Source: Candidatus Poribacteria bacterium
GTDB taxonomy: Bacteria > Poribacteria > WGA-4E > PCPOR2b
Direction: 5' to 3'
NCBI GenBank assembly: GCA_965208675.1
Contig: OZ242351.1
Coordinates: 1,504,001 to 1,568,000, forward strand
DNA length: 64,000 nucleotides
Position 1 is the stretch's first letter, and each line of letters begins with the position of its first letter. This document shows, one piece after another, positions 23,999 to 39,130 of this stretch. The position numbers and the translations under genes were made by a program. The notes below the pieces were generated by a model. That model saw only the letters and a program-made list of their open reading frames with translations. It did no database searches and had not been told where the DNA came from.

Positions 23999-24036
23999 TT
24001 TTAACTGTAAGATTTTTTCAAAGCACGGAGGGTTGA

Positions 24037-25254
24037 ATGGAAAGCCACACAGACACGATAATTGAAAAAACGGAATCGCATTTCTTTCCGGTGTTTAACA
24101 GAAGCCCCTTGGTCGTTGATAGAGCAAGCGGCTGTCTGGTTTGGGATGTTAACGGGAAGGAATATATTGACCTGACTTCGGGCTGGGGTGTGACGACGCT
24201 TGGGCACAGTTACCCGGCTTTGATTCAGGCGATATCAGAGCAGTTAGGAATGTGCATGCAAGCTCCAAACTGTAATCTGTCTTACACGATTCCTCAAGCT
24301 GAAGCCTCGGAACTGCTTTGTGAGATTTCACCACCTGAGCTCACAAGGGTCTTCTTTACGAACTGCGGCTCTGAAGCCGTCGAGGGTGCAATCAAGCTTG
24401 CCCGCCGTGCCAAAAAGAAGCCGGGATTCGTCGCATGCCGGAACGGCTTTCACGGCAGAACGCTGGGCGCCTCATCAGTCACAGGCCAGGAACGGTACAG
24501 AGCGCCGTTTGAGCCGTTATTGTCCGGGATGAAGTTCGTTAAATTCGGGAGTTGCGCGGCTATGGAAGCTGCCATTGATGAGGAAACAGCCGCAATTGTC
24601 GTAGAGCCGATACAGGGAGAAGGCGGTGTAAATGTACCGCCAGCCGGTTATCTGAAAGGTTTAAGGGAAATAGCTGATAGGCATGATATCCTGCTCATCT
24701 TCGACGAAATTCAGACCGGAATCGGCCGGACGGGAAAGATGTTCGGCGCCAACCACGAAGGCGTGACACCGGATATTCTCCTTTTGGGCAAATGCTTGGG
24801 CGGCGGATTTCCAGTCGGCGCTGTTGTTATCACTGAGGATGTCGCCGCAACAATCGAAAAGGGCGATCATGGGGGCACCTTTGCGGGCAATCCAATCGCG
24901 TGTGCTGCGGTTGTTTCCGTCATCCGAGAGTTGCTCGCGCATCGAATCCTTGAACATTGCCAAAAGGCGGGAGACATTGTAATAAACTCCCTGAGAGAGA
25001 TTCAACACACTACTTCGGACCGGATTGTGGACATTCGCGGCTGCGGACTCCTGATAGGGTGCGAGTTGTCGTCTGATGGACTGGCATCAGCCATTTCCAA
25101 GCGGTGTCTGGAGCAAGGGGTCATCGTCAACGTTGTGCACGGCAAAGTCCTTCGAATATTTCCCGCGTTGAATGTAGATTTTTCACTCTTGGAAAAAGGG
25201 ATGCAGACGATTGCAAATATTATGGGGTCTTCAGGGTTTAACGGGGAAATGTAA
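24037..25254 (+). CDS. argD: Class III aminotransferase (acetylornithine aminotransferase-like)
   Basis: FHGRT, EPIQGEGG, DEIQTGIGRTG, GKCLGGG, HGGTFAGNP. Confidence 0.88.
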   Translation: MESHTDTIIEKTESHFFPVFNRSPLVVDRASGCLVWDVNGKEYIDLTSGWGVTTLGHSYPALIQAISEQLGMCMQAPNCNLSYTIPQAEASELLCEISPPELTRVFFTNCGSEAVEGAIKLARRAKKKPGFVACRNGFHGRTLGASSVTGQERYRAPFEPLLSGMKFVKFGSCAAMEAAIDEETAAIVVEPIQGEGGVNVPPAGYLKGLREIADRHDILLIFDEIQTGIGRTGKMFGANHEGVTPDILLLGKCLGGGFPVGAVVITEDVAATIEKGDHGGTFAGNPIACAAVVSVIRELLAHRILEHCQKAGDIVINSLREIQHTTSDRIVDIRGCGLLIGCELSSDGLASAISKRCLEQGVIVNVVHGKVLRIFPALNVDFSLLEKGMQTIANIMGSSGFNGEM

Positions 25255-25295
25255 AATGCCGCATGACATAAAGGTCACCGCACAATCCTTCGTAT

Positions 25296-25521
25296 TACCC
25301 ACACGTAACATACCGCTCCACCGGAGCGGAAGAGGGTTGTGAAAGCTGTTTCTATAGATATGCCGCTCCGCTGGAGCGAAACCCTTCTAACCGCATTAAT
25401 CCCACATTAGCGAAGACTATCGCACTCACTATTCGTTCGCTTGATCACTCCAGAGGAGTGCAATGTCTATAGCTAAGATGTGTCCGCCTCGCACCCGCTC
25501 CAGCGGAGCGGTATGTGGGTA
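25296..25521. repeat. Cluster of four REP-like palindromes in inverted arrangement
   Basis: CCGCTCCACCGGAGCGG (25313), CCGCTCCGCTGGAGCG (25363), CACTCCAGAGGAGTG (25446), CCGCTCCAGCGGAGCGG (25495), with CTATAG and ACATAC/GTATGT flanks. Confidence 0.8.
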
Positions 25522-25682
25522 TTTGCGATAAATTGCTGTTTCTAGATATGCATGATACGCCCTCATTGAGATGTGGGTAATAGTAAGTCCACATTTTCGC
25601 ATGAGTTACGTGAGGAATTGCCTCTAACTCCGACTGGAAAGAACTGAAATGCCGATAACGGTACTTTTGAGCCTGGTGAACC

Positions 25683-26093
25683 GTGAAAGCCTATATCTCC
25701 ATTAAATTCCGTGAAGACAACAGCAACAAAGATTGTATTCAAAAAATCTCGTCTGCGCTTGAGCGAAACGGTTTTGAAACAGTATGTGTCGCCCGTGACA
25801 TTGAGAATTGGGGAGAAGCCGAATTTAGTCCCGCAGATTTGATGCAAAGGTCATTTGCTGCAATCGAGTCGAGTGACGTATTCGTGGTCGACTTGTCAGA
25901 AAAAGGGGTAGGATTGGGCATCGAAGCGGGTTACGCATACGCGGTGAAAATCCCGATTGTAGTCATTGCTAAAGCGGGTTCAGACATTTCAACGACGCTA
26001 AAGGGTATTTCCCAGAAACAGTTTTTGTACGAGACTTTCGATGATCTTGTTCAATTTTTTGAAGAATTGGAGATTCCCCATGTTCAGCAATGA
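25683..26093 (+). CDS. Nucleoside 2-deoxyribosyltransferase family protein
   Basis: KAYIS N-terminus, SDVFVVDL, GLGIEAGYA..KIPIV. Confidence 0.85.
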   Translation: MKAYISIKFREDNSNKDCIQKISSALERNGFETVCVARDIENWGEAEFSPADLMQRSFAAIESSDVFVVDLSEKGVGLGIEAGYAYAVKIPIVVIAKAGSDISTTLKGISQKQFLYETFDDLVQFFEELEIPHVQQ

Positions 26094-26167
26094 GTTCAGA
26101 CTAGGTTTAGCTGGGTGGCCACGCCTGTATCAAAACCGTCTCGTTGTCGATAAGGAGAACTTTGTTT

Positions 26168-28008
26168 ATGCCGCGACCAATTGCAGTTGATGAAGTTGTA
26201 TCATTTCCGTATGCGGGAATTGAGATTCGTGCTCTCTCGCCCGACTGCGATCTCTCAGCGGATGGCTTACGAGTTGCGTACACGCATCGGAATCAGATTC
26301 ATATCACCGATCTGCAAACATCAAAGACGTACGAACCATTCAAAGGAAGATTCCCAAAATGGTCACCCGTCCAACCCAACATGCTTGCATTCCTAAAGCC
26401 AGAGAATCCAGGCGCGTGGCTTAGATACCCCGATGGTACCGAGGGGCAGTTGGCAGGGAACGCGCAGGAAGTCAGTTTCTTGCAATGGTCATTTGACGGT
26501 AAGTTTATCGCCCTCATTGCGAATCGGGATCTAGAAATACAAAATGAAGACTCCGATGACGATATTGTTATCGTGCTTCCACCGCCGCTCACCGCTGTGA
26601 GTTCAATCGTAATTCTTCATGTAGAGACGGACGAAACCACCCTTCTTGTGGAATCAAGTCCGGGAGAATCCTACGAAGCGGTAACTTGGCATCCTGATGG
26701 CAATTGGCTGACTGTTCACTCAATAATAGAAAGACGAAACCAAGACGATTGGGATGAACGCCTTTTTGATATCGATCGAAGAACTGGAAATAGGTATGAC
26801 CGCATTGGCCCCGGCAAGAATGAGATAATTTCACCCTCATGGTCTCCGTGCGGAAAGTATTTGGCAATGGGCTACTCCCCATATAGCTATATTCATCCTG
26901 TACGTAATATGTGTGCCATTATGGAGAGAGATTCAAAGGAGGTTCGGATATTGGACGATGAATACTTCGTTAATTTCGTCTGCTGGGGACATGACAGCCG
27001 AAAAATATACTGTAGCGGCTTAAAAGGAATCAACCGCCATGTCTTCTCTGTCGATATACATACCGGAAGAAAAGAGGTGATAGTAGATCGAACCGGATGG
27101 ACTAACCTTGCGGGGATAAGCCGGGACGGGCGGAAGCTCTTGTCGGTATTTCATGGGCTATTAACGCTTCCGGACGCTTACCTCATCTCCCTTGATACTG
27201 GAGAGGAAAGGGCTGTCACTCAATTTAGCTGCCAACTCGCCGATTACGAGCTAGCCGATGCTTCCGTTGTCGAATGGGCGTCGTACGACGGTTTGGTTAT
27301 TCAAGGCTGCGTTGTTCCGCCGTTAGGCAAGCCGATGAGTCCAGAGAATCCTACCATCGTCGATTTGCATGGCGGACCGACTGAAGGCGGCGCGGCAATC
27401 TTCCACTACCATGAGTGGCATTGGTTGGCAGCGAATGGGTTTCAGTATTCGCGCCCGACTTTCGCGGGAGTCAACAGTATCGGTGGTGCGACCCGCCAAC
27501 TGAAGAGATGGACTATAGAGATGCCATGTGCGGCATCAACTGGTTGGCGTCTCAACAGATGTGCGACAAGGCGAGAATGGGAGTGCACGGCTATAGCTAT
27601 GGTGCTATACTTGGGGCTTACGCCATCGGGAAGTCAACGCTTTTTCGCGCCGCTGTCCTGTTAAATGGACTCTACGACTACCGTCTTTCTTGTGGGCTTG
27701 GCGGCCAAACACGGTGGGGATCAACTTGCGCTAAAGAGTTGGGAGGAGCGCCATGGGAGGTTCCAGATGTATACCAAGAACAATCTCCCATCAGCTACGT
27801 TGGCAACGTCGAAACTCCGGTTCTAATCCTTGTCGGGGAGAATGACGCCCGGCACGAAGCTGAACTGTATACTGCATACTTAAGAGCGCAAGGTAAAGAG
27901 GTTACCTGCGTGCTTTACAAAGGCGCGGGACATAGTCTCGGCAAAAAACACCGGAAGGATTATTACGAACGGACGTTACAGTGGTTCCGCAAGTATCTCG
28001 ACCCATGA
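26168..28008 (+). pseudogene. S9 family (prolyl oligopeptidase/DPP-like) peptidase, frameshifted near 27445
   Basis: Propeller plus HGGP in ORF 26144..27664; GYSYG, END and GAGH in ORF 27415..28008; one G is missing relative to the paralog at 29877. Confidence 0.88.
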
Positions 28009-28250
28009 ATCCAGCCAATCCGAAGTCGGCATTCCCCAATCACACCGTTACCAAATACCCCTAATCCACCGCTTCACTTGTCAAATTTCTACCATGTGAC
28101 GGAGATACGCCTTCGGTGTTTTTCGCCAAATAAGGATTGGGTTTTGATTTGGACGCCCGCATCTACATAAGAACAATGCGCCATACGTAAAATAGAGTAA
28201 CGCATGACACATAACGTCCAATTCCGAGGTTTTTCTTACGCATTGCGAAC

Positions 28251-29717
28251 GTTTCAATGCTTGCCCCGATGAAAAGGGGACTGAAAAATCTTCGCGGTTG
28301 AACAATGAGCGAAGATAGTTTTTCCTCATTCGATGTTGTGCCGCAACGGGACTTGCAAGTAGGGATAGTCAGCTATCAGGTGTTTTCAACCATTGCTCCG
28401 AACAAAAGGGCACTGAAGGTCGAAAATGTTAGAGGGCCCTCGGTGGCGATCATTTACTGGGTAAACCGCCATCAACCCGGAGAGTAGACTTTGAATTTTT
28501 GGGAAAACCAAAGGAGGTCTCCAACATTGGATGTTAGGACGTCTCATTTACAGACCCGATCAATCGTGAGCGGGGGTCCGTTAACACGGATGCGCGTGGT
28601 GATGATTTCGTCCCTGGTGAGGTTTGGTGTTCTGTTGTCCCTGCCGACACTGTTGGCTGGCGGAGCTCGATGGTGGTGGCCGCTGGAGCTCATGACGCAT
28701 TTTCGAGTCCACTACGCCTTGACGTTGGCGCCGCTGACCATCGCACTCGTAGTTGGCAAACGCTACTTGATGTCGATTCTGACAAGCGGTTGTCTGCTCT
28801 GGAATCTCTGGCTGATCGCGCCAGCCTATATTGAACTGCCTATCAGTTACAGCGAACCGGTCGTTTTGCGTCTCATGTCGGCCAACGTCCACACGGGTAA
28901 CCGGAACTACGAGCGGTTTCTGCGAGCGGTCCGGTCGGCGGCCCCGGACGTGTTGCTGGTGATGGAAATCGACCATCGCTGGAATCAAGCGATCGAGGCG
29001 TTGGAAGCTGACTACCCTCATCATCACCGCCACCCGCGGAGGGACAACTTTGGCATCGGCCTGTTCGCTAAGCTGCCGGTCCAATCACTGGATGTGCAAT
29101 TCGTAGGCACTGCCGACGTGCCGTCGATTCATGCACGCGTCGAAGTGGGCGATCAGACGGTGACTATTTTCGGTACCCATCCCCTACCGCCCACAAGTTG
29201 GCAGAATTCGGCGCTGCGCAACGAACAACTTCAGGCGATCGCGGATCTGGCAACGGCGACAGATGGCCTGCTGATTGTGATGGGCGACTTGAATGTCACC
29301 CCCTGGTCCCCCTACTTTCGCGACCTGCTAAGCCGTTCCACGCTCCGCGACTCGCGCCGTGGCTTTGGCATCCAACCCACCTGGCCAAGCCGGTACGGAC
29401 CTGGCGGCATACCGATTGATCATGTATTGGTGTCGAAGGAACTCTCGGTCATCAACAGGTGGGTCGGACCGCACATGGGCTCCGATCACCGAGCTGTGAT
29501 TGTGGATATAGGCGTCGCCCGTGGCGCCCCGTCCGGGGCGAATGACCCGCCGCAGACGGGGCAAGTGGCAAGTGTCGAGAGGAGTGATCGTTGAACTCAA
29601 AACGTTGTCCGCCTGTTTCAACCACTACCCCGATGAAAAGGGGCCTGAAAGGATTCTCGCGCCTAGAACCTAAATTCTCAGTTTCAACTCTTGCCCCGAT
29701 GAAAGGGAGTCTGAAAG
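28251..29717 (+). CRISPR. Degenerate orphan CRISPR-like array: four 37-bp repeats at 28251, 28383, 29615 and 29681
   Basis: Consensus GTTTCAACCMTTGCCCCGATGAAAAGGGGACTGAAAG with a CCCC/GGGG hairpin and CTGAAAG 3' handle; inter-repeat gaps of 95, 1195 and 29 bp; no cas genes in the window. Confidence 0.7.
28527..29594 (+). CDS. Membrane-anchored endonuclease/exonuclease/phosphatase (EEP, YafD-like) family protein
   Basis: Three N-terminal TM segments, SANV, ME, THP, MGDLN, PIDH, GSDH; AAAGGAGG precedes TTG 28527 (ORF track start 28491). Confidence 0.9.
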   Translation: MDVRTSHLQTRSIVSGGPLTRMRVVMISSLVRFGVLLSLPTLLAGGARWWWPLELMTHFRVHYALTLAPLTIALVVGKRYLMSILTSGCLLWNLWLIAPAYIELPISYSEPVVLRLMSANVHTGNRNYERFLRAVRSAAPDVLLVMEIDHRWNQAIEALEADYPHHHRHPRRDNFGIGLFAKLPVQSLDVQFVGTADVPSIHARVEVGDQTVTIFGTHPLPPTSWQNSALRNEQLQAIADLATATDGLLIVMGDLNVTPWSPYFRDLLSRSTLRDSRRGFGIQPTWPSRYGPGGIPIDHVLVSKELSVINRWVGPHMGSDHRAVIVDIGVARGAPSGANDPPQTGQVASVERSDR

Positions 29718-29876
29718 TTGGTAAAGCAGTTCGGATCTACGAGTCATTTTAGCCTCGTTTGATTTGCTATCACGCTCTGGCTACCGCCTCATAGCTGATA
29801 TTGAAAACGGTGTGTAGTAAGCGAACTCATACCAGTGTTGGATTTTTTCTTTCACGGTTAGATAAGGAGTTTGTTT

Positions 29877-31718
29877 ATGCCACGACCGATTACAGTTGAT
29901 GAAGTTGCATCATTTCCGTATGCGGGAATTGAGATTCCTGCACTCTCGCCCGACTGCGATCTCTCTGCGGATGGCTTACGAGTTGCGTACACGCATCGGA
30001 ATCGTATTCAAATCAACGATTTGGAAACATCAAAAACGTACGAACCATTCAAAGGAAGATTCCCAAAATGGTCGCCCGTCCAACCCAACATGCTTGCATT
30101 CCTGAAGCCAGAGAGTCCAGGCGTGTGGCTCAGATACCCCGACGGTACCGAGGGGCAGTTGGCAGGGAACGCGCAGGAAGTCAGTTTCTTGCAATGGTCA
30201 TTTGACGGTAAGTTTATCGCCCTCATTGCGAATCGAGATTTAGAAATACAAGATGAAGACACCGATGACGATATTGTTATCGTCCTGCCACCCCCGCTCG
30301 CCGCTGTGAGTTCAATTGTAATACTTCATTTAGAGACGGGCGAAGCCACCCTTCTTGTGGATTCAAGTCCGGGAGAATCCTACGAAGCGGTAGCTTGGCA
30401 TCCTGATGGCAATTGGGTAACTGTTCACTCAATGATAGAAAGTCGAAACCGATGCGATTCCGACTATTGCCTTTTTGATATAGATCGAAGAACTGGCAAT
30501 AGAAATGACCGTATTGGTCCCGGCAAGAATGAGATGATTTCACCCTCATGGTCTCCGTGCGGAAATTATTTGGCATTAGGCTACTCCCCATATAGCTACA
30601 TTCATCCTGTACGTAATATGTGCGCCATTATGGAGAGAGATTCAAAGCAGGTGCGAATATTGGACGATGAATACTTCGTAAATTTCGTCTGCTGGGGACA
30701 TGACAGTCGGAAAATATACTGCAGCGGATTAAAGGGAATCAGCCGACATGTCTTCTCTGTTGATATACAAACTGGACGAAAAGAGGTTATCGTAGATCAA
30801 ACCGGATGGACCTATCTTGCAGGGATAAGCCGCGACGGGCGGAAACTCTTGACAGTTTTATGGGGATTATTGACGCTTCCGGATGCTCACCTCATCTCAC
30901 TTGATACTGGAGAGGAAAGGGCTGTCACACAATTCAGCGACCAACTCACCGATTACGAGCTGGCTGACGCTTCCGTTGTCGAGTGGGAATCCTACGACGG
31001 TTTGGTTATTCAAGGCTGCGTTGTTCCGCCGGTGGGCAAGTCGATGAGCCCTGAGAATCCTACCATCGTCGATTTGCACGGCGGACCGACTGGGGACGGC
31101 ACGGCAGTCTTCTACCGTTATTGGCATTGGTTGGCAGCCAATGGGTTTCAGGTATTCGCACCCGACTTTCGCGGGAGTCAACAGTATCAGTGGTGCGAAC
31201 CGCCAACCGATGAAATGGACTATAGAGATGCCATGTGCGGCATCAACTGGTTGGCGTCCCAACAGATGTGCGACAAGGCGCGAATGGGAGTGCACGGTTT
31301 TAGTTATGGCGCGGATCTTGGGGCTTACGCCATTGGGAAATCGACGCTCTTTCGGGCTGCTGTGCTGCATGGCGGGTGTTGCGACTACCGTCTCGCTTGC
31401 GGATTGGGTCTCCAAACACGGTGGGGCTCAATTTGTGCGGAAGAAATGGGGGGTGCACCGTGGGAGGTTCCACACGTCTACCAGGAACTATCTCCCATCA
31501 GTTACGTTGCGGATGTGGAAACACCCGTTCTAATTCTTCACGGAGAGAATGATACCCCGCACCAAGCCGAACCGTATACGGCATACCTAAGGGCGCTCGG
31601 AAAGGAGGTTTCCTATGTGCTGTACAAGGGTGAAGGGCACGGTCTCAACAAAGCATCGAATAAAAAAGATTGTTGGGAGCGGTCATTGCGGTGGTTCCGC
31701 AAGTATCTCAACCCCTGA
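29877..31718 (+). CDS. S9 family peptidase (intact paralog)
   Basis: Propeller, HGGP, DFRGS, GFSYG, HGEND, GEGH; AAGGAG RBS. Confidence 0.92.
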   Translation: MPRPITVDEVASFPYAGIEIPALSPDCDLSADGLRVAYTHRNRIQINDLETSKTYEPFKGRFPKWSPVQPNMLAFLKPESPGVWLRYPDGTEGQLAGNAQEVSFLQWSFDGKFIALIANRDLEIQDEDTDDDIVIVLPPPLAAVSSIVILHLETGEATLLVDSSPGESYEAVAWHPDGNWVTVHSMIESRNRCDSDYCLFDIDRRTGNRNDRIGPGKNEMISPSWSPCGNYLALGYSPYSYIHPVRNMCAIMERDSKQVRILDDEYFVNFVCWGHDSRKIYCSGLKGISRHVFSVDIQTGRKEVIVDQTGWTYLAGISRDGRKLLTVLWGLLTLPDAHLISLDTGEERAVTQFSDQLTDYELADASVVEWESYDGLVIQGCVVPPVGKSMSPENPTIVDLHGGPTGDGTAVFYRYWHWLAANGFQVFAPDFRGSQQYQWCEPPTDEMDYRDAMCGINWLASQQMCDKARMGVHGFSYGADLGAYAIGKSTLFRAAVLHGGCCDYRLACGLGLQTRWGSICAEEMGGAPWEVPHVYQELSPISYVADVETPVLILHGENDTPHQAEPYTAYLRALGKEVSYVLYKGEGHGLNKASNKKDCWERSLRWFRKYLNP

Positions 31719-31936
31719 ATCCAGCCAATCCGAAGTCGGTATTCCCCAATCCCCTATTCTCCAACGCTCGCTAATCCACGTTGGTATTTGGATTAAAGAG
31801 CGGGCTGAACTTACCTTCTACGGCAGGGAGGACGCTGACTTCCCTCGTGGCTGTTATTCAAGCATCAGCCAGAATTTTTCGGATAAGCTGATGGTGGTCG
31901 GCTCCGCTCTTAGTCAGGGTGGCGGGGCGCGTTATT

Positions 31937-32857
31937 TCACTCCTGTTTACGCCGAACATCCTCGACAATTTGCTGAATCGCCTCAATTACGGCTTCAGGC
32001 TGGTCCCTTGGAATGTCGTGACCGCTCTTTTTAGCGATCAGCCGTCTTCCGTTAGACGAGAGAAGAGTTAGCTCCGCCCACATCTCTTGAACAGTTTGCC
32101 ACGCTTGATTCAGTAATGCCTCTGGGATGCCGGGTAGAGTAGATGGTCTTTGATTGCCTGTCAGTACCACTAACGGCATTTCTCTCAGTTTTGGAGGTAA
32201 AACGCGATGGGCACGTACCTGCGCGTCCGTCTCAGGGCGGGCAACAAATTCATCATAATCTGCGGTTCCCGGTTCCGGCGTGGGGGTCGCGACGTTCCAT
32301 ATCTCCGCGGGTATGCGTAGACGTTGATCTTCGTGCGACGGGTCAATCAGCGCCATCCCGACCACTTCGTCCGGATACTGACTAGCGTAAAGACGAACAT
32401 GCAATCCACCAGACGAGTGCCCCACCAGAACATAGGGTGCTTCAATTCCTGCATTCACCAGCAATTTATGGAGTTCATTGACAATCTGCTGCCCGGTGCG
32501 AGGTGTGGGACCGGGATCGCTGAAGCCGTAACCGGCGCGATCGTAAGAACAGACCCGAGTGAATTTTGCGAGTTCGGGTTGTACATTCTGCCAGTCATCT
32601 GAGCCGCCGCCACGTCCGGAATCCAACACCACGGTCGGGCTGCCTTCGCCGGTACAGAGGATATATAACTGGTAGCCGCCCACGTCCACCAGTTTGCCCG
32701 GGGGCGCCGCCTTACGTTGGGAATTTTGGCGATTATTTTTGCTCTTCATACCGCTAACTTCCCCTATAGTTTTCGTTGCAGGAACGGCGAGGCAAAATAT
32801 ACCTAGCGCAACTGCTAACGCGCATTCAACAGCTAGTACGCTCCGTCGTTTAGACAT
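31937..32857 (-). CDS. Secreted alpha/beta hydrolase
   Basis: YDRAGYG, GHSSGG, SGH; N-terminal signal. Confidence 0.9.
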   Translation of the reverse strand: MSKRRSVLAVECALAVALGIFCLAVPATKTIGEVSGMKSKNNRQNSQRKAAPPGKLVDVGGYQLYILCTGEGSPTVVLDSGRGGGSDDWQNVQPELAKFTRVCSYDRAGYGFSDPGPTPRTGQQIVNELHKLLVNAGIEAPYVLVGHSSGGLHVRLYASQYPDEVVGMALIDPSHEDQRLRIPAEIWNVATPTPEPGTADYDEFVARPETDAQVRAHRVLPPKLREMPLVVLTGNQRPSTLPGIPEALLNQAWQTVQEMWAELTLLSSNGRRLIAKKSGHDIPRDQPEAVIEAIQQIVEDVRRKQE

Positions 32858-33226
32858 GATGCTTTTCCTTTTGGTTCAAAATTCACTGCGAGTGATGAAG
32901 ACGATTGGATTTAATCGAAAAATATACTCCTAAAATCGTGAACGCGCAAAGACGAGCAACCTATTACATGTGTACTTTTAGATTTTGAGCGGGCCAGTGT
33001 TGTCCATTTTGCTAGATTATGCAAGATGCGAAATGCACGTGTCAATGGGAAAAGCGGTGGTGAGCGTTTGTAGGTTGGATTGAGGTGTCGGGTTTCACTA
33101 TCTATGAGAGGTGCTGTTTAACCCTAGATCCTTTTTTCTGGTGGATAGAGATGAAGACCTGACATTTATTGCCTTCGCTATACGAAAAGTTTATTCTTCC
33201 CTGTCCGGGTGGAATCTATGAACTGG

Positions 33227-36200
33227 TCAATCTGCGAGCAGATATTGAACTTTAGCTTCCAGGTCATGCCCCCAGGCGTCTACGGAAATCTCTCCTGCTG
33301 AGTTAATTAGAACAAACCCAGTTCCCCATCCGATTGCAAATCGATCGAATGTTTCGCCCTTTGCGCCGACGACCTTTGTTGGGCGGTCTAAGCCGATCGA
33401 GTACGACAGCGACTGCTCCGTGATGTGCACTTTGACTTTGTCAACATCAGCCGTAGCGGGACAGATGGCGACGCAGACGAGTCCTTTTTCTCGATAGACC
33501 TCCTGCAAGATATTCAGGAGACGTATTTGTCGAATATGGTCGCGGTGATTCAAATTCCAAAAATGTAGGACAATCGTCTTTCCCTTGAACTCTCCGATGG
33601 ATGCGGGTGAACCGGACAACCACTTGGAAACCGCCAACTCCGGTGCCGGTTTGTTCACGAAAGATTTGAAGCGGTTTTCTGCGGACGCGGCGTATGACCG
33701 CTGCAACTGCTGCTGCGGAGTCGGCCCCAATCTCTCGTCATCCGTCGTCAGAGTAAAGACCAGATCACGTCGATCCACCGCGATATCCTTGAATGTTTTG
33801 CGGTACTTTTTATGATAGACACCCATTGACACGACCGGACCCTTTATGTTCGGTAGTTCAAAATCACCGTACACGTTAGTGTAAGCAACGGGGTATCGGT
33901 AGCTGGAGAAGGGCGTTTCTTCGCCGCCTACCATGACCCGCGCCTGTTCAATCGGTTTGCCTTCGGCGTCCACTACCTTCCCGGCGAGATATGCTATCGC
34001 CTTGACTAGTTCAAAGTCGTGCCGTCGGTTGGTTTTTAAAATCCTGACTTCAAGGTCTGGATACGCCGGATGGAAAATGAACAGCGCGGAAATAACCGCC
34101 ATAGAAAGTTCTTCCATTCGATAATTACCGTTTTCATCGGTGCGGCTTGACCAGTGTTGCCCCGCCTGACTGATGCTAAGTTGCACGCCGCTAACCGGCT
34201 CGCCAGAGTTATCAATGACACGCCCTTCAATAAAAAACTGCCCGCCGGCTGGGAACAGGACGAAATCCGCAATTTGTGTCATCTCCGCTGTGGCGGTGAA
34301 CTGATCGGTTTCAGCATTTCGATACCCGTCTCGTTGCACATAAATTTCGTACTTATCACCAACAATGAGCGAAATATTCTGGAACTGCCCATCGTCATCT
34401 GTCACATCCACAATGGTGTGAGCACCGATGCCTCGTTGATGGTCCCAGTGAATCAGATTGACGTTCGCCAACGGCATCGGTTTGCCTTCACCGTCTATTG
34501 CTCGTCCGGAGACTTCGATCCGCTGTTGCCGTTTCATCCGGATTTCAACCGGCATATCCGGCTGCACCTCAATCTCGACCGTTCCGCGCAATCCCAATTC
34601 GCTATGTACGGCTCTGAGGCCAAGATTACTTCCAACTCGTAGTCCGTCAACAGTGAACCTACCTAACTCATCTGATGTGCCATAGTTTTTAAGACGCATC
34701 TGATCGTTTGTAATTTTCGCGCCGGCCACCGGTTTACCGGTCTCGTCCACAAGCCGGCCGGTCAGATTAATCCCTTTCGAAAACTGAAAATCAACGGTCA
34801 CAGTTTCGCCTTCAACGACCTCCACACGTCTCTCAACCCGTCCGATGTCCAATCTCTCGGTCCAGCCTATATCTTGATAGCCTGCCGGTGTATTAGTGTG
34901 CACGACCGCCTCACCGGGCGCGGCATCAAATTTGTACGCACCAGTTTCATCTGTTATTATATGGTGAGACCCCAGTTGAGATCTGTGCGGACGGGCCGCA
35001 TCATTTAATCTGATAGTATGGCCGGCAAGCGGTTCATTTGTGTCCCGATCGGTCACCCGCCCGGTGATGAAGCCGCTCCGATTCAGGGCTAAATCCACAT
35101 TCGTAACGGTCTGTCCGCCAGTGACTGTAATGAACTCCTCGGGAAGGGCGGTCCACCCGTTTGGCCCCTGATCTAGATAAAGGCTGTATGTGCCGGGGGC
35201 GACATTGTTCAGGCGATATTTTCCCTTTCGAACAGGTGCCTGTCCCGCCTCAATGGTCGGATAGATGCCCTGAAGCAACACCATCGCGCTTTTGACCGGC
35301 CTCTCGGTGTCAGCATAAGTGATGCGCCCCTCAATCCTGCCCTCACGTGTCAGCCGGAAATTGAGCCTTTTTCCGCTGACCGGCACGCTGTGGCGAAACT
35401 CCTTTGCGTATCCTGATGCTTGGACATCAAGGCTTATTTTTGTACCTTGCTGCAATCCAGGGAGCACAAACTCCCCATTCGTGTCCGTCTTGACGGGTTT
35501 TGGCAAGGCATTTTGTGTCAATCTATCTCCGTGTTCCCCTTCGCCATGGAAAACGGATTGAATCAATACCTTAGCGTTCTTAATCGGCTCGCCCGCCTCA
35601 TTCATTACTTTGCCAGTGATGATTCTTGGGCCTTCAAGTTTAATCTCAACGTCTGCCGTACTTTGGATTGGAAATTCCTGCCACCAGATTGCATGATCGG
35701 GATGCGTAACAGCAAGCTGCAGGCGATTCAGTGTGTTCTTGGAGTTGAAATGCCTTGATTTGCGTTTTGAAGGTGAAACTTCAAAGCGAAAGACCCCATC
35801 CTTCCCGGTGCGGGTAAAATACTTACGGTCAGGGTATGTGAAATATACGGATTCGGCATCCCCTCCAACTGGATAGGACAGTATCACATATCGTAGTTCG
35901 GCATCCGCTACCGGCGCACCATCACTGTCAACAACCCGGCCGGAGAATATTAGTTTCTCTTTCTCACCCACCGCTGCTGCTGCACGGCGTTGCGGTTTGG
36001 CGTTCTTTGCACCGAGGTTCCCCGAATCTGACGCTAGTCCAATTGAATTGCGGCTTTGCGCCGTAGAACCGCGATTGGAAGCAGCCAACGGCTGCATTCC
36101 CATCGGGGTGGGTATGCCCGCAATTAACGGACGTGTTGAGTTGGGAGCGGGTGTAAGGAATGTGACTGGAATCGGGTGGCTCGTGTGAGATTGTAACAAC

Positions 36201-36967
36201 CCAATCTGGTTATTTGAGGACACATTCGGCGAATCGCTTCGTCCGCCAATCAGTCCAACAAAAACACACAATGCCGTAATCAGCGAAATTAGTGCTTTGC
36301 TCACCGTTGTGCTACCCCACGTGAACCCTAGGGTTGGAGATGGGATGTGGCGAATCTGCTCCATTAGCTGCATGAGGAATCCTCCTTTGAGTTTGCGGTT
36401 CTTTACGAATCTGCCGTAATGTTCAGACAACGTGCTGCCAAGCTGCAGACGCGCACGACGCAACTTGCTCTTGATAGTATTCACGGAGACACCGAGAAAT
36501 TCTGAAATCTCCTTCAGCGAATAATCACCTGCATAGAACATCGACACGACGAGTCGGCTTTCGTCAGAGAGCTCTGACATTGCCTGCTCAAGATCTACCT
36601 GCCAGTCCTGTGTGGGCACCGTGTGTTCAGGTTGAATCTGTAGTGAGTCGTCCACAGCATGCTCCAGCGCAATCTCGTGCCGACGTTTTTTCGTAATGCG
36701 CTCCAGCCAACGTTTGCATTCGTTGGACATGATTGTATACAGCCAGCTCCGGAAGAGATGCGGATGCCGCAGTTTTTGGAGATGGCGGAATGCCTTTAAA
36801 AAAACCTCTTGCGTAATGTCCTGCGAATCGGCTGCGTTCCGCACTTTCTGATAGGCGTAGGTGTAGACCATGTCCTGATACTTGTGTACGAGCGCACCGA
36901 AGGCGTCTCGATCTCCTGCGAGCGTTTGAGACACTAACTTTTCGTCGGCTGTATACATAATAAGCAT
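33227..36967 (-). CDS. ECF sigma-70 factor fused to TM helix, carboxypeptidase-regulatory-like repeats and degenerate TlpA/redoxin domain
   Basis: Region 2 (DSQDITQEVF, FRSWLYTI), region 4 (SLKEISEFLGVSVNTIKSKL), TM, repeated GRV.D..G.PV/T..G.F, C-terminal KPAPEL..W...KGKTIVLHFW. Confidence 0.9.
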   Translation of the reverse strand: MLIMYTADEKLVSQTLAGDRDAFGALVHKYQDMVYTYAYQKVRNAADSQDITQEVFLKAFRHLQKLRHPHLFRSWLYTIMSNECKRWLERITKKRRHEIALEHAVDDSLQIQPEHTVPTQDWQVDLEQAMSELSDESRLVVSMFYAGDYSLKEISEFLGVSVNTIKSKLRRARLQLGSTLSEHYGRFVKNRKLKGGFLMQLMEQIRHIPSPTLGFTWGSTTVSKALISLITALCVFVGLIGGRSDSPNVSSNNQIGLLQSHTSHPIPVTFLTPAPNSTRPLIAGIPTPMGMQPLAASNRGSTAQSRNSIGLASDSGNLGAKNAKPQRRAAAAVGEKEKLIFSGRVVDSDGAPVADAELRYVILSYPVGGDAESVYFTYPDRKYFTRTGKDGVFRFEVSPSKRKSRHFNSKNTLNRLQLAVTHPDHAIWWQEFPIQSTADVEIKLEGPRIITGKVMNEAGEPIKNAKVLIQSVFHGEGEHGDRLTQNALPKPVKTDTNGEFVLPGLQQGTKISLDVQASGYAKEFRHSVPVSGKRLNFRLTREGRIEGRITYADTERPVKSAMVLLQGIYPTIEAGQAPVRKGKYRLNNVAPGTYSLYLDQGPNGWTALPEEFITVTGGQTVTNVDLALNRSGFITGRVTDRDTNEPLAGHTIRLNDAARPHRSQLGSHHIITDETGAYKFDAAPGEAVVHTNTPAGYQDIGWTERLDIGRVERRVEVVEGETVTVDFQFSKGINLTGRLVDETGKPVAGAKITNDQMRLKNYGTSDELGRFTVDGLRVGSNLGLRAVHSELGLRGTVEIEVQPDMPVEIRMKRQQRIEVSGRAIDGEGKPMPLANVNLIHWDHQRGIGAHTIVDVTDDDGQFQNISLIVGDKYEIYVQRDGYRNAETDQFTATAEMTQIADFVLFPAGGQFFIEGRVIDNSGEPVSGVQLSISQAGQHWSSRTDENGNYRMEELSMAVISALFIFHPAYPDLEVRILKTNRRHDFELVKAIAYLAGKVVDAEGKPIEQARVMVGGEETPFSSYRYPVAYTNVYGDFELPNIKGPVVSMGVYHKKYRKTFKDIAVDRRDLVFTLTTDDERLGPTPQQQLQRSYAASAENRFKSFVNKPAPELAVSKWLSGSPASIGEFKGKTIVLHFWNLNHRDHIRQIRLLNILQEVYREKGLVCVAICPATADVDKVKVHITEQSLSYSIGLDRPTKVVGAKGETFDRFAIGWGTGFVLINSAGEISVDAWGHDLEAKVQYLLAD

Positions 36968-37008
36968 CTAATCCTAAAACGAAGCATGGAAGCCCTATTT
37001 GCATAACA

Positions 37009-37037
37009 TAGACACATCTAGTGTACCAGAGGTTGCA
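37009..37037 (-). promoter_or_regulatory. Putative ECF (autoregulatory) promoter
   Basis: TGCAAC-N18-GTCTA; the same motif precedes all three sigma paralogs. Confidence 0.7.
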
Positions 37038-37383
37038 CCGAGTGGAAAAAATAATGATTCACGCCCCATCCCAATCAAAAAAATGAATGGTTGCTGAATT
37101 CAAGGAATAGCATCAAAGAGATGTCTCAAACGATTAAATGCCGCCTGAATGAGAATTTGAAACCTGCAATCGCGAAAGGGCTTTGGAACGCAGCGTGAAT
37201 GGGACAACTACGTCAAAGGTGGGGTTTATAGCGGACGACGATGAAAAGACATCTTTCCTAATTAACTCAATGTGGTTGACAAAACTGAAGCGACATCGGG
37301 CTTTGAAATTATTTTGGAAAGTTGTCAAATGTGTTTTCTGAACACGCCTGAAAAAACTATCTTCGATTTGACGAACGAAAATT

Positions 37384-37505
37384 CGCTCTGGGGCTTTGGC
37401 TTATGACTGCTGGTGCGGCGTTAAGGGCAACCACAAGGGTTGCCCCTACAGCGTATTAGCCCAATGTGAGGGTAGTCGTTTTATACCTGTCGCCCCGCTG
37501 GGGCT
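37384..37505. repeat. REP-like palindromes
   Basis: GGGCAACCACAAGGGTTGCCCCTAC (37425-37449; GTAG-type on the minus strand), GCCCCGCTGGGGC (37492-37504), degenerate CGCTCTGGGGCT (37384). Confidence 0.65.
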
Positions 37506-37888
37506 ATCGGGCGGTGGAATTATTTTGGAAAGATGTCTAAAGACAAACCAAATTTGCGATAACTAGACAACCGGCCGGTATTGGGTATGGCGATAACTTT
37601 CTCCGTGCTAAGATGGACTTCACCGGGAACGTTTATTTTGGACCGGCAGGCCGTAATTGGAGGGGTTATCCTGCGGCTAATATTGACGCGAGAAGTTTTC
37701 GACTTGGACGAAATGGAAAAATAAGGTGGGATTTTGACCGTTGAGGCGTTTACGTAAATTCAGGCCGCAAACAAGCCATTTGCAGAACCGCGGAGGTCAT
37801 AGATAGAGATTCACATTCGACCCAAACTACACTGTGGCAATTATGATAGATTAGCGAAGCGTATCAAAATTTCGCCGAGATCGACGAT

Positions 37889-39130
37889 TTACTTTGTCCG
37901 TGTTGTCTTTCCGGTCGTGCTGTCCTTTTCGATGATAGCTATGTGCGGCAGGCGCCACTCTATGCTTGCAGGGCCAACGTCGAACCATTCACCCGAAAGT
38001 CCCATCGAAACGAAATCTTCCTCGCCCCGGTCTTTATCGTGCGGTTCATGGGGCGCCCAGTTTGTGAATGTCACCGGCTCACTGTTTGCCCAAACCCATT
38101 CCCCTTCGTTCGCATAATCGGTCAGTCCAATCCAGCACCGATGCGGGCCAAAAGTTCTTGAAATCCAATCCTGCTCTGCTGCATCGTTGATTGCAACGAG
38201 ATACCCATATTCGGCGGCGGCTTGAGAGTTGGCTTCATCCCAACTCTCGCTACTAATTCGCTTGTACGCGTGCCCATTTGCCGGATTCACCACCCACGCT
38301 GACCCGCCGCCCTGCGGTGACGTTGATACTTCTGCAGAAACGTCGACTCGACCAGTGGGACCTTCAGGCCAATTCGGAAGTCTGTCGAGCGTGAAAGCCA
38401 AATCTTCTCTGTCTTCTCCTTTTCTTAGCAGGAAGGGATCTGCTGACGCCGAAAACCTGTGATAGTTCACCGTCATTGTGTAGATTGCCGATTCATCTAC
38501 GTAGTATTTAAAGTAGCCGTCAGCGTCTGTTTCACTCGACGAACTTGAGCTGCCGCTACCCGTCCCGTCGGGCGTACGATGGTTTACGCTGACATTTATC
38601 CTCACGCTGGAAAGCGGGGTGCCATTGAGAAACACAATGCGTCCCCGAATGTAATTCCGCAATTTCACTCTGACTTCGACATTCTCAACGTGCACGTCCG
38701 GCTTAATAGCGAACGCGATTCCCTGCCAAGGCGAATATTCGTGCCGGTACACGGTCAGTGCCGCAACCTTTACGGAAATGATTTCGCCGCTGGTCCCGGA
38801 CGAATGATAAAACTTGGTAGCCGGTGTTAGTCGGACTTTTGCCGGCGGGATGTTGCTCATCGAAAAACGTCCAATTTCGTCAGAGTGCGATTCTGAAAGT
38901 GTGATGAAGGTTCCTTCGACTGATTCAAGTGAAAACGGTAAAAGGGATAGCCCAAATCCTGCAACCGGATTGCCTTCTGAATCAACAACACGGCCGGACA
39001 GTGTAGAAGTACCGTCCAAAGCCAAGCCCTGCAACGATGCGGCGAATGAAAATACCATTATCCCAATAAGTAGCAACAGGTTTTCTCGCCTAAACGAAAT
39101 GCACAAACACCTGACATGTGACCAGTCCAT
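37889..39130 (-). CDS. Secreted protein with carboxypeptidase-regulatory-like domains and C-terminal C-type lectin domain
   Basis: Signal peptide; GRVVDSEGNPVAG; NGHAY, LVAINDAAEQ, WIGLTD, EGEW.W, FTNWAPHEP, WFD. Confidence 0.88.
   Translation of the reverse strand: MDWSHVRCLCISFRRENLLLLIGIMVFSFAASLQGLALDGTSTLSGRVVDSEGNPVAGFGLSLLPFSLESVEGTFITLSESHSDEIGRFSMSNIPPAKVRLTPATKFYHSSGTSGEIISVKVAALTVYRHEYSPWQGIAFAIKPDVHVENVEVRVKLRNYIRGRIVFLNGTPLSSVRINVSVNHRTPDGTGSGSSSSSSETDADGYFKYYVDESAIYTMTVNYHRFSASADPFLLRKGEDREDLAFTLDRLPNWPEGPTGRVDVSAEVSTSPQGGGSAWVVNPANGHAYKRISSESWDEANSQAAAEYGYLVAINDAAEQDWISRTFGPHRCWIGLTDYANEGEWVWANSEPVTFTNWAPHEPHDKDRGEEDFVSMGLSGEWFDVGPASIEWRLPHIAIIEKDSTTGKTTRTK

Follow-up and report, generated by a model that had tools for sequence, protein, structure and literature searches.

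Structure of the locus

The genome studied here (G000, a single contig of 4.89 Mb with 49% GC) belongs to a Candidatus Poribacteria bacterium, and the window that we analysed is its 64,000-nt stretch G000:C1:1504001-1568000. It contains a gene for a YafD-like endonuclease/exonuclease/phosphatase (EEP) enclosed by direct repeats that resemble those of CRISPR arrays. Four such repeats of 37 nt lie on the + strand exactly where the original prediction had placed them (Table 1). Their start-to-start distances of 132, 1232 and 66 nt leave spacers of 95, 1195 and 29 nt in place of the array norm of about 35 nt. A degenerate consensus recovered three of the four repeats at no more than 3 mismatches (0/100 in shuffled sequences), and each of the four matched the repeat variants of related genomes at more than 27 of 37 positions, compared to no match in a reversed-genome control.

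Table 1. Features of the EEP locus and its surroundings, in window coordinates
Feature	Position	Strand	Remarks
S9 peptidase paralog 1	26144..28008	+	split into two overlapping open reading frames (ORFs); compared to paralog 2, frameshifted by a net -1 near 27445
Lineage-specific segment	28015..33207		about 5 kb, missing at the syntenic site in G001 and G003
Repeat 1	28251..28287	+	GTTTCAATGCTTGCCCCGATGAAAAGGGGACTGAAAA; canonical 4-bp stem and 8-nt loop kept
Hairpin and T-run	28288..28323	+	perfect 8-bp hairpin ATCTTCGC...GCGAAGAT
Repeat 2	28383..28419	+	degenerate, 31/37 against relatives' variants; hairpin shifted and imperfect
EEP gene (YafD-like)	28491..29594	+	longest ORF 367 aa, intact
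Shine-Dalgarno AAAGGAGG	28510..28517	+	9 nt ahead of in-frame TTG 28527 (read from sequence)
Repeat 3	29615..29651	+	canonical stem-loop kept; begins 20 nt past the EEP stop
Spacer of repeats 3-4	29652..29680	+	29 nt; target search empty
Repeat 4	29681..29717	+	degenerate; canonical hairpin gone
S9 peptidase paralog 2	29878..31718	+	intact; ATG 160 nt past repeat 4; co-oriented with the repeats

Repeats 1 and 3 fold into a CCCC/GGGG stem-loop that is followed by an 8-nt tail. The nearest Rfam family, CRISPR-DR32, has the same structure, and the two repeats score 28.6 and 26.8 bits against it, both below its gathering score of 48. All window repeats are of the GTTTCAAC...CCCC...GGGG variant, like those of the relative G006, whereas G002 and an array remnant elsewhere in G000 carry the other variant, GTAACAAC...CCGC...GCGG. 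The 132-nt distance had been read as two units of 66 nt. This did not survive a closer look, as the best candidate for a hidden middle repeat matches at only 19 of 37 positions, which is noise, and the array period of the relatives is 72-76 bp, unlike 66. The 95 nt that separate repeats 1 and 2 are instead partly taken up by the hairpin at 28288-28323, a fragment related to a dispersed family resembling repetitive extragenic palindromic (REP) sequences or miniature inverted-repeat transposable elements (MITEs); its 14-mer occurs at 12 sites in G000, including this one.

The unit has no recognizable leader: it resembles none of the 13 leaders of the relatives, which are themselves mutually conserved. 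Family searches run on the genome of G000 placed neither cas1 nor cas6 in the window, in agreement with what had been claimed. A scan for sigma-70-type sites found no promoter-like site on the + strand. What it did return, a single promoter-like site on the - strand and a single terminator-like site, does not exceed the expectation from shuffled sequences.

The original description of the EEP gene as intact, GC-richer than its surroundings, provided with its own ribosome-binding site and co-oriented with the repeats holds in every point. The likely start is the TTG at 28527, giving a product of 355 aa, a predicted membrane phosphoesterase. Its residues 129-333 align with the complete Pfam profile Exo_endo_phos (PF03372, positions 1-225 of 225, E 2.5e-32), and the name YafD-like comes from the database source of its homologs. 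The GC content of the gene is 0.55-0.62 and that of its flanks 0.44-0.50. Our comparison set comprised 41 genomes in all, with G001, G002 and G003 belonging to the same genus as G000 and G002 being its closest relative. Just 2 of the 40 relatives yielded a match to EEP (37-38% identity); the 3 same-genus and 21 other same-family genomes yielded none. The closest database relatives are one metagenomic protein at 94% identity (P0001) and others at 60% or less, which, where named, come from Planctomycetota. The C-terminal tail of P0001 results from translating repeat 3 and the spacer behind it in a shifted frame; hence, the strain that encodes P0001 also carries repeat 3 behind the gene. By composition, distribution among relatives and database affinity, the EEP gene is foreign and was acquired horizontally.

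An association of the repeats with EEP genes in particular was considered and rejected: the repeat family adjoins the gene at 0 of 58 EEP-homolog loci of species-representative genomes, and it lies beside neither of the homologs in G032 and G035. Three of the loci show borderline single repeat matches at 24-25/37, and in a Planctomycetaceae contig (L077) an unrelated array lies about 2.6 kb from an EEP homolog.

The ORFs tested within about 4 kb encode an aminotransferase, S9 peptidases and an alpha/beta hydrolase. None of them contains a transposase domain, and none of the neighbouring ORFs is an integrase, although the integron integrase IntI was not searched genome-wide; the earlier reading of the neighbourhood stands in this respect too. 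Except for the CRISPR repeats, no inverted or direct repeats flank the EEP gene as they would an insertion sequence (IS) or transposon.

Assemblies of other samples reproduce the structure. A Logan contig from what is likely the source sample covers 27522-29996 with 0 differences. Contigs from two other sponge metagenome studies bridge the structure at about 96-97% identity, one covering 27981-29932 (68 differences, 16 gaps) and the other 28070-29887 (55 differences). Since independent contigs bridge it, a misassembly of the repeat-EEP-repeat structure is unlikely.

The repeat family in related genomes

The repeat core is present in 26 of the 41 genomes, whereas a control pattern gave 2 matches in all of them together. 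The arrays of the relatives reach 122 copies at a spacing of 72-76 bp with usual spacers of 33-42 nt, and the stem varies in a compensatory manner (CCCC/GGGG and CCGC/GCGG). Judged from these sequences, with their stem-loop and 8-nt handle, the window repeats are members of a true class-1 CRISPR family, which bears out their initial classification as hairpin repeats of the Cas6-substrate type.

In G006, the operon beside the array is of a divergent type I-D and encodes Cas6 (PF10040), a WYL-WCX regulator, Cas10d (a weak match), Csc2, Csc1, a type I-D Cas3', Cas1 and Cas4. The same repeat family is used in G002 by an I-B-like module (Cas6, Cas8b1, Cas7/Cst2, Cas3, Cas1, Cas4). A divergent Csc2 adjoins the arrays in 7 genomes, and 4 other array-bearing genomes gave no Csc2 match. 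Judged from the gene content, differing effector modules thus accompany this repeat with its Cas6 and adaptation genes, and we assign no single subtype to the repeat. In type I-D systems, Cas6d cleaves after the stem-loop, leaving an 8-nt 5' handle and a CRISPR RNA (crRNA) of about 72 nt (PMC10212523); the units of 37 + 35-36 nt in the relatives fit this length.

Several relatives also hold a second, canonical Csc2 elsewhere, and an ORF for an IS200-like Y1 transposase lies within the cas loci of both G002 (L042) and G006 (L043). In the same two genomes, which represent two genera, a degenerate repeat hairpin (CGCGAT[C/G]AAAAGCG) is found 25-30 nt upstream of the start of the operon cas6 (L043:6778-6830 in G006, L042:14012-14064 in G002). 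By its sequence and position, it may be a Cas6 autoregulatory or crRNA-like element.

The Cas6 of this family occurs in 22 of the 41 genomes. We considered whether its retention where arrays are missing could serve as an independent sign of a non-immune role, and rejected this, as its presence mostly tracks that of the arrays.

Genes between repeats at array trailers

In the arrays of the relatives, repeats were placed by an identity of at least 25/37 to any of 18 variants. The survey covered 13 main arrays and the 2 orphan clusters of G029, drawn from 12 of the 25 repeat-holding relatives. Of the 13 main arrays, 11 contain long gaps of 98-3786 nt between repeats, and the gaps are restricted to the last few units, whose repeats are variant (Table 2); G032 (50 repeats) and the second G005 array have none.

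Table 2. Long gaps between repeats in the arrays of relatives
Array	Units	Gaps (nt)
G006	113-115 of 118	213, 1909, 233
G038	54-55 of 55	142, 3055
G019	55-56 of 59	513, 1672
G010	60 of 60	206
G015	22-24 of 24	1007, 718, 307
G020	last unit	1007 (ortholog of G015's)
G023	52 and 54 of 56	2121, 367
G005	8 of 10	432
G035	14 and 16 of 17	178, 98
G029, short degenerate array	5, 7, 11 of 14	172, 975, 184
G029, two orphan clusters		716, 3786, 626, 179
G002	41 regular units, then trailer	91

The main ORF runs in the direction of the repeats in 14 of the 16 gaps that are at least 200 nt long and contain an ORF of at least 50 aa; with the G015 and G020 orthologs counted once, the figure is 13 of 15 (two-sided binomial p of about 0.007 against 0.5, calculated by hand). 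The exceptions are an IS pair in G023 (anti-oriented DDE transposases) and a doubtful ORF of 75 aa. When only ORFs of at least 100 aa or with a Pfam match are considered, the ratio is 9/10. The contents of the gaps are mutually unrelated and include LRR/GHL15/dockerin, DUF6259/dockerin, HTH, WCX and DUF5662 proteins as well as proteins without assignment.

The G006 trailer illustrates how tightly such genes are fitted between the repeats. A repeat is followed by 24 nt and GAAAGGAGG, after which an ATG opens the gene of an LRR/GHL15/dockerin protein of 619 aa, whose stop is separated from the next repeat by 9 nt according to the repeat finder (10 nt as read). In the next unit, 5 nt and AAGGAGG come after the repeat, and then the ATG for a membrane protein of 61 aa; past its stop, 31 nt and a further repeat lead back to normal units. 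The ATG thus lies 40 and 16 nt after the repeat in G006, and 39 nt after it in G023, and these genes have their own Shine-Dalgarno sequences. Whether other copies of the repeat flank whole genes, as the original prediction had asked, is answered in the affirmative by co-oriented genes with their own ribosome-binding sites at the array trailers of relatives.

In the syntenic arrays of one genus, the conserved flank begins 340 nt past the array in G010 and 2.9-3.6 kb past it in four sister species, which have gene-bearing trailers. As trailer length differs among sister species, gene-bearing units are gained and lost quickly. Taken together, these comparisons place the window locus as one instance of a pattern that, by the sequences of the relatives, is family-wide. 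Its recurrence hints at a non-immune use of the repeats but does not prove it.

Two explanations of the trailers were tried and discarded. They are not second arrays with a leader of their own, as no trailer contains a leader-like sequence. Nor do they share conserved spacers across genera; the BLAST matches that suggested this, including one between window repeats 3-4 and G019, are carried by the repeats alone. Also of note is a 130-aa ORF between trailer repeats of G019 (L061:12425-12817) that has only a WCX domain, the C-terminal part of the WYL-WCX regulator of the relatives' cas operons. It seems to be a piece of a gene from a cas locus that became caught between repeats.

Remains of the CRISPR system in G000

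Repeat copies in G000 were scored exclusively against the 18 variants from relatives with a cut-off of at least 27/37; a cut-off of 23/37 was unusable, as it gave 283 matches in the reversed genome. The census found 12 copies at 5 loci and none in the reversed genome. The window holds 4 copies, a site at 3.47 Mb holds 4, the region at 3.03-3.04 Mb holds 2 and a half copy, 0.846 Mb holds 1 with a weak neighbour, and 3.76 Mb holds 1.

The site at 3.47 Mb is what remains of an ortholog of the G002 locus, with which it shares the neighbours rsmE, rimP and nusA and, at 86% identity, the leader. Its cas1 is shortened, encoding 295 aa compared to 362-366 aa in the relatives, and a co-oriented ORF of 206 aa lies between two of its repeats. 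Neither Csc2 nor the Cas10d of G006 was found in G000. The Cas3 and Cas8b of G002 match only paralogs of 27-34% identity at a separate locus at 0.1 Mb, a III-A/I-B system with its own Cas6 and a regular array of 47 repeats of a different, 30-nt type, which served as a control (46 of 46 spacings were 64-68 bp). The search for a parent array with its cas6 and cas1 was thus only partly successful. It led to the shortened cas1 and a stand-alone Cas6, whereas no parent array or cognate effector of the window repeat family is left in G000. The suggested fusion of Cas1 to a reverse transcriptase can be dismissed, as the two Cas1 ORFs of G000, of 331 and 295 aa, are too short for it. By these remains, the CRISPR system to which the window repeats belong is a relic in G000 and presumably no longer immune.

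The stand-alone cas6 (G000:805661-806614, - strand) is intact and lies amid metabolic genes. Its product is 67% identical over the full length to the operon Cas6 of G006, and it is matched at 96% by a syntenic stand-alone Cas6 of G002, which has an operon-linked copy as well. The ratio of nonsynonymous to synonymous substitutions (dN/dS) between the G000 and G002 stand-alone copies is 0.08 at a dS of 0.24, which corresponds to purifying selection. There is no repeat hairpin upstream of this gene.

The orphan repeats at 3.03 Mb (L134; 3033563, 3036858 and 3042431, two complete and one half, - strand) sit in a run of small co-oriented ORFs without known function, and at 3033563 the end of the repeat passes straight into a Shine-Dalgarno sequence followed by an ATG. 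A prophage origin of this cluster was rejected, as 0 of 10 proteins matched PHROG. The orphan repeat at 3.76 Mb (G000:C1:3759957-3759993, L135:4957-4993, 30/37) forms the final codons of a gene and ends 12 nt before the ATG of the next ORF. The C-terminus of the gene that ends in it presumably resembles NuoA. This repeat is shared by G000, G002 and G003, with a 1-nt indel that shifts the frame, and G001 has unrelated sequence in its place. Selection on it was considered and rejected, its conservation being no higher than that of its flanks.

Neighbourhood and arrival of the block

The two S9 peptidase genes on either side of the unit are 86.9% identical (BLAST, 26149-28041 and 29861-31751), and each is 85-87% identical to the ortholog in G001 and G003. 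By BLAST, their homology begins 17 nt ahead of the ATG and ends 33 nt past the stop; the ungapped repeat family D4 extends it to about 60 nt past the stop. Paralog 1 is a probable pseudogene, or else its frameshift is a sequencing error, and the listed contigs from the source sample stop short of 27445. The duplicated unit is gene-sized, from 17 nt before the ATG to just beyond the gene, and about 55 nt downstream of both stops (28015-28069 and 31725-31779) are not found behind the single G001/G003 ortholog. In run X5, contigs connect 26102 with 29870, 27201 with 30925 and 27688 with 31400, a hint that alleles with a single S9 copy exist.

The lineage-specific segment contains the repeats with EEP, S9 paralog 2 and an alpha/beta hydrolase gene (31937-32857, - strand). 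At the syntenic site, G001 and G003 have a single S9 gene with the large downstream gene about 113 bp further on, and G002 lacks the S9 gene too. The empty sites of the sister genomes show no remnant of the repeat, the best matches being only 18-20/37, and thus offer no repeat at which a capture could have taken place. As the empty sites have no remnant and the unit is leaderless, neither the acquisition of spacers nor recombination at a resident repeat built the block on the spot. Comparison of the sister genomes indicates that the repeat-EEP-repeat block came in as one piece, along with the S9 duplication.

Two dispersed elements were also observed in this region. One, of about 100 nt, is represented at 28288-28323, at 37352 (- strand) and at 10 further sites in G000; it has GCCCC-loop-GGGG hairpins and a ATCTTCGAT...ATCGAAGAT hairpin followed by AGTTTTTTCAG, and it matched no Rfam family within window positions 24000-39000. 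The other is a segment at 25264-25598 that is missing at the syntenic site of G001-G003. It holds units of about 35 nt (e.g. 25413-25447) with dozens of sites in the same-genus genomes, and in each of the four runs its read depth was 10-20 times as high as in the flanks. In appearance, this segment is a dispersed element of the REP/MITE-like kind.

Interpretation

The most likely explanation, to which we assign a probability of roughly 0.55, is that the locus is a passive relic, namely the leaderless and cas-less remainder of the trailer (the old end) of a class-1 array with a foreign EEP gene embedded in it. Genes would enter the old, immunologically spent end of an array by recombination. 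We propose that poor recombination between diverged repeats keeps them there, as does the fact that an insertion costs no useful spacers, and that co-oriented genes are kept because they ride on the transcription of the array without colliding with it. In G000, the block would have arrived as a unit together with the S9 duplication at a variable site, and the parent system would have been lost afterwards, with the consequence that the window repeats no longer serve immunity. A candidate route of entry is homologous recombination with repeat-bearing foreign DNA, which has been proposed for viruses (PMC8616872); alternatively, Cas1-Cas2 might have integrated oversized fragments.

Several observations weigh against such a passive relic. 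No IS, integrase, target duplication or donor locus for the EEP gene was found. A passive history leaves unexplained why an intact and matching Cas6 is under purifying selection in a genome that has only orphan repeats of this family, and why ribosome-binding sites often lie close behind repeats. Furthermore, the surveyed relatives do not represent independent cases, some of the ORFs in the count, at just 57-81 aa, may not be genes, and the orientation bias weakens if arrays and genes both favour the leading strand.

A functional module, in which the repeats around the gene would still be in use, is a less likely, tentative alternative. Here, the transcript of repeat 2, EEP and repeat 3 would be cut by the stand-alone Cas6 8 nt before the repeat ends, at positions predicted to lie before ACTGAAGG in repeat 2 and before CCTGAAAG in repeat 3, yielding an mRNA whose 5' end is fixed shortly upstream of the ribosome-binding site and whose 3' end carries a hairpin. 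Besides the conservation of Cas6 itself, the canonical stem-loop of repeats 1 and 3 is consistent with this possibility. So are the genes with their own Shine-Dalgarno sequences close behind repeats in G006, G023 and the 3.03 Mb orphan, the position of most G000 orphan repeats just upstream of co-oriented ORFs, the hairpin ahead of the operon cas6 in two genera, and the conservation of the whole unit in other sponge metagenomes. However, no promoter-like site was found on the + strand, a hairpin with a T-run stands between repeats 1 and 2, and repeats 2 and 4 are degenerate. The orphan repeat common to three members of the genus is no better conserved than its flanks, and the cas6 of G000 itself has no hairpin upstream. 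As Cas6 tracks the arrays, its presence in G000 could also reflect a recent loss of the remaining system. By extension, and with the same reserve, old array ends of these sponge-associated bacteria might form a cassette-like platform for accessory functions, on which genes lie between repeats, are transcribed with the array and are released by Cas6; in G000, Cas6 and the repeat-flanked genes would have been kept for this purpose.

It is improbable that the locus is a one-off accident, in which foreign DNA inserted at random into a dead orphan array and the gene and the repeats have nothing to do with each other. The array is indeed dead in G000 and the region varies between the sister genomes, but the same architecture occurs with different genes in live arrays of several genera, and the unit was not formed in situ at a resident repeat. 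Even less can be said for a regulatory mini-array of the CreA/crlRNA type, in which repeats 3-4 would yield a crRNA-like RNA that, being partially complementary to its target, guides an effector complex to repress the neighbouring cargo gene. A two-repeat unit does lie directly upstream of S9 paralog 2, and I-D mini-arrays beside variable cargo genes have been described as "hotspots of gene shuffling" (Shmakov et al. 2023, bioRxiv 10.1101/2023.03.03.530964). The 29-nt spacer, however, has no match at up to 8 mismatches within 26000-34000 and only chance-level 12-13-mers genome-wide, and searches of G000 for genes of the cognate effector found none. Finally, the artefacts that the original prediction had itself named, a repeat-mediated misassembly or a dispersed REP-type element, can practically be dismissed: apart from the unrelated dispersed element nearby nothing was found in their favour, independent contigs bridge the structure, and the repeat has just 12 copies at 5 loci in G000 and forms regular arrays in relatives. 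An IS scar, which it had also named, was not seen.

If the repeats are mere debris, as in the passive relic that we favour, the locus still shows that foreign genes are tolerated where they land in array trailers and that pieces of trailers can move as blocks. If Cas6 processing does take place, the locus would represent a natural reuse of a CRISPR nuclease and its repeats for mRNA maturation after the loss of immunity, and a second cassette-like architecture of gene capture beside integrons. With one Cas6, four repeats and one gene, it is well suited for a direct test.

Comparison with known systems

On paper, the arrangement is integron-like, with seemingly promoter-less, co-oriented, gene-sized units that are bounded by a structured repeat and vary between close relatives. 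Unlike in integrons, the bounding repeats are those of CRISPR and not attC, and there is no integron integrase nearby. We know of no excision or insertion chemistry that would make CRISPR repeats the borders of cassettes, and the likeness is no more than an analogy.

Orphan and fragmented arrays of Anabaena PCC 7120 depend for their processing on a Cas6 encoded at a distance (Reimann et al. 2020, bioRxiv 10.1101/2020.04.14.041012). The likeness to G000 lies in scattered cas-less units, a Cas6 elsewhere in the genome and 37-nt hairpin repeats in the style of types I-D and III. The Anabaena orphan arrays, as presented in that study, keep normal spacers and remain an immune memory, whereas the units described here are degenerate and leaderless, enclose a whole protein-coding gene and have no cognate effector that we could find. 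Cleavage by Cas6 outside arrays has a precedent in Sulfolobus, where it cuts non-CRISPR RNA bearing a repeat-like motif (PMC4041471).

Shmakov et al. describe I-D mini-arrays and CreTA elements, which likewise place repeat-like units beside shuffled non-cas cargo, and the hairpin ahead of cas6 in G006 and G002 fits this class. In their account, these elements are located inside cas operons and act through complementarity of spacer and promoter. Here, by contrast, the genes lie between trailer repeats, the spacer has no target match and no effector turned up.

Mobile elements can carry solitary repeat units (RNA anti-CRISPRs, PMC10651486), and these have been proposed to recombine into host arrays (PMC8616872). 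Homologous recombination between the repeat of such an element and that of an array would offer a route by which foreign DNA becomes flanked by repeats in a fixed orientation. Unlike the elements reported there, the EEP gene is not accompanied by genes of a mobile element, and the 3.03 Mb cluster likewise gave no PHROG match.

Long "spacers" derived from transposons and IS elements have been reported in arrays (Kupczok et al. 2015, PMC4524480). As in those cases, units of at least 100 nt lie here between bona fide repeats, and G023 provides one IS case of our own. Unlike the cases reported there, the inserts of the window and of most relatives have no transposase, carry ordinary co-oriented cargo genes and are confined to the trailer. 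Our full-text literature search, which left supplements and subscription journals outside its scope, found no description of ordinary co-oriented genes between trailer repeats. In summary, orphan arrays and IS-interrupted arrays are already familiar, and what appears to be new, by that search, is the presence of ordinary co-oriented genes with their own ribosome-binding sites as oversized "spacers" of array trailers across several genera.

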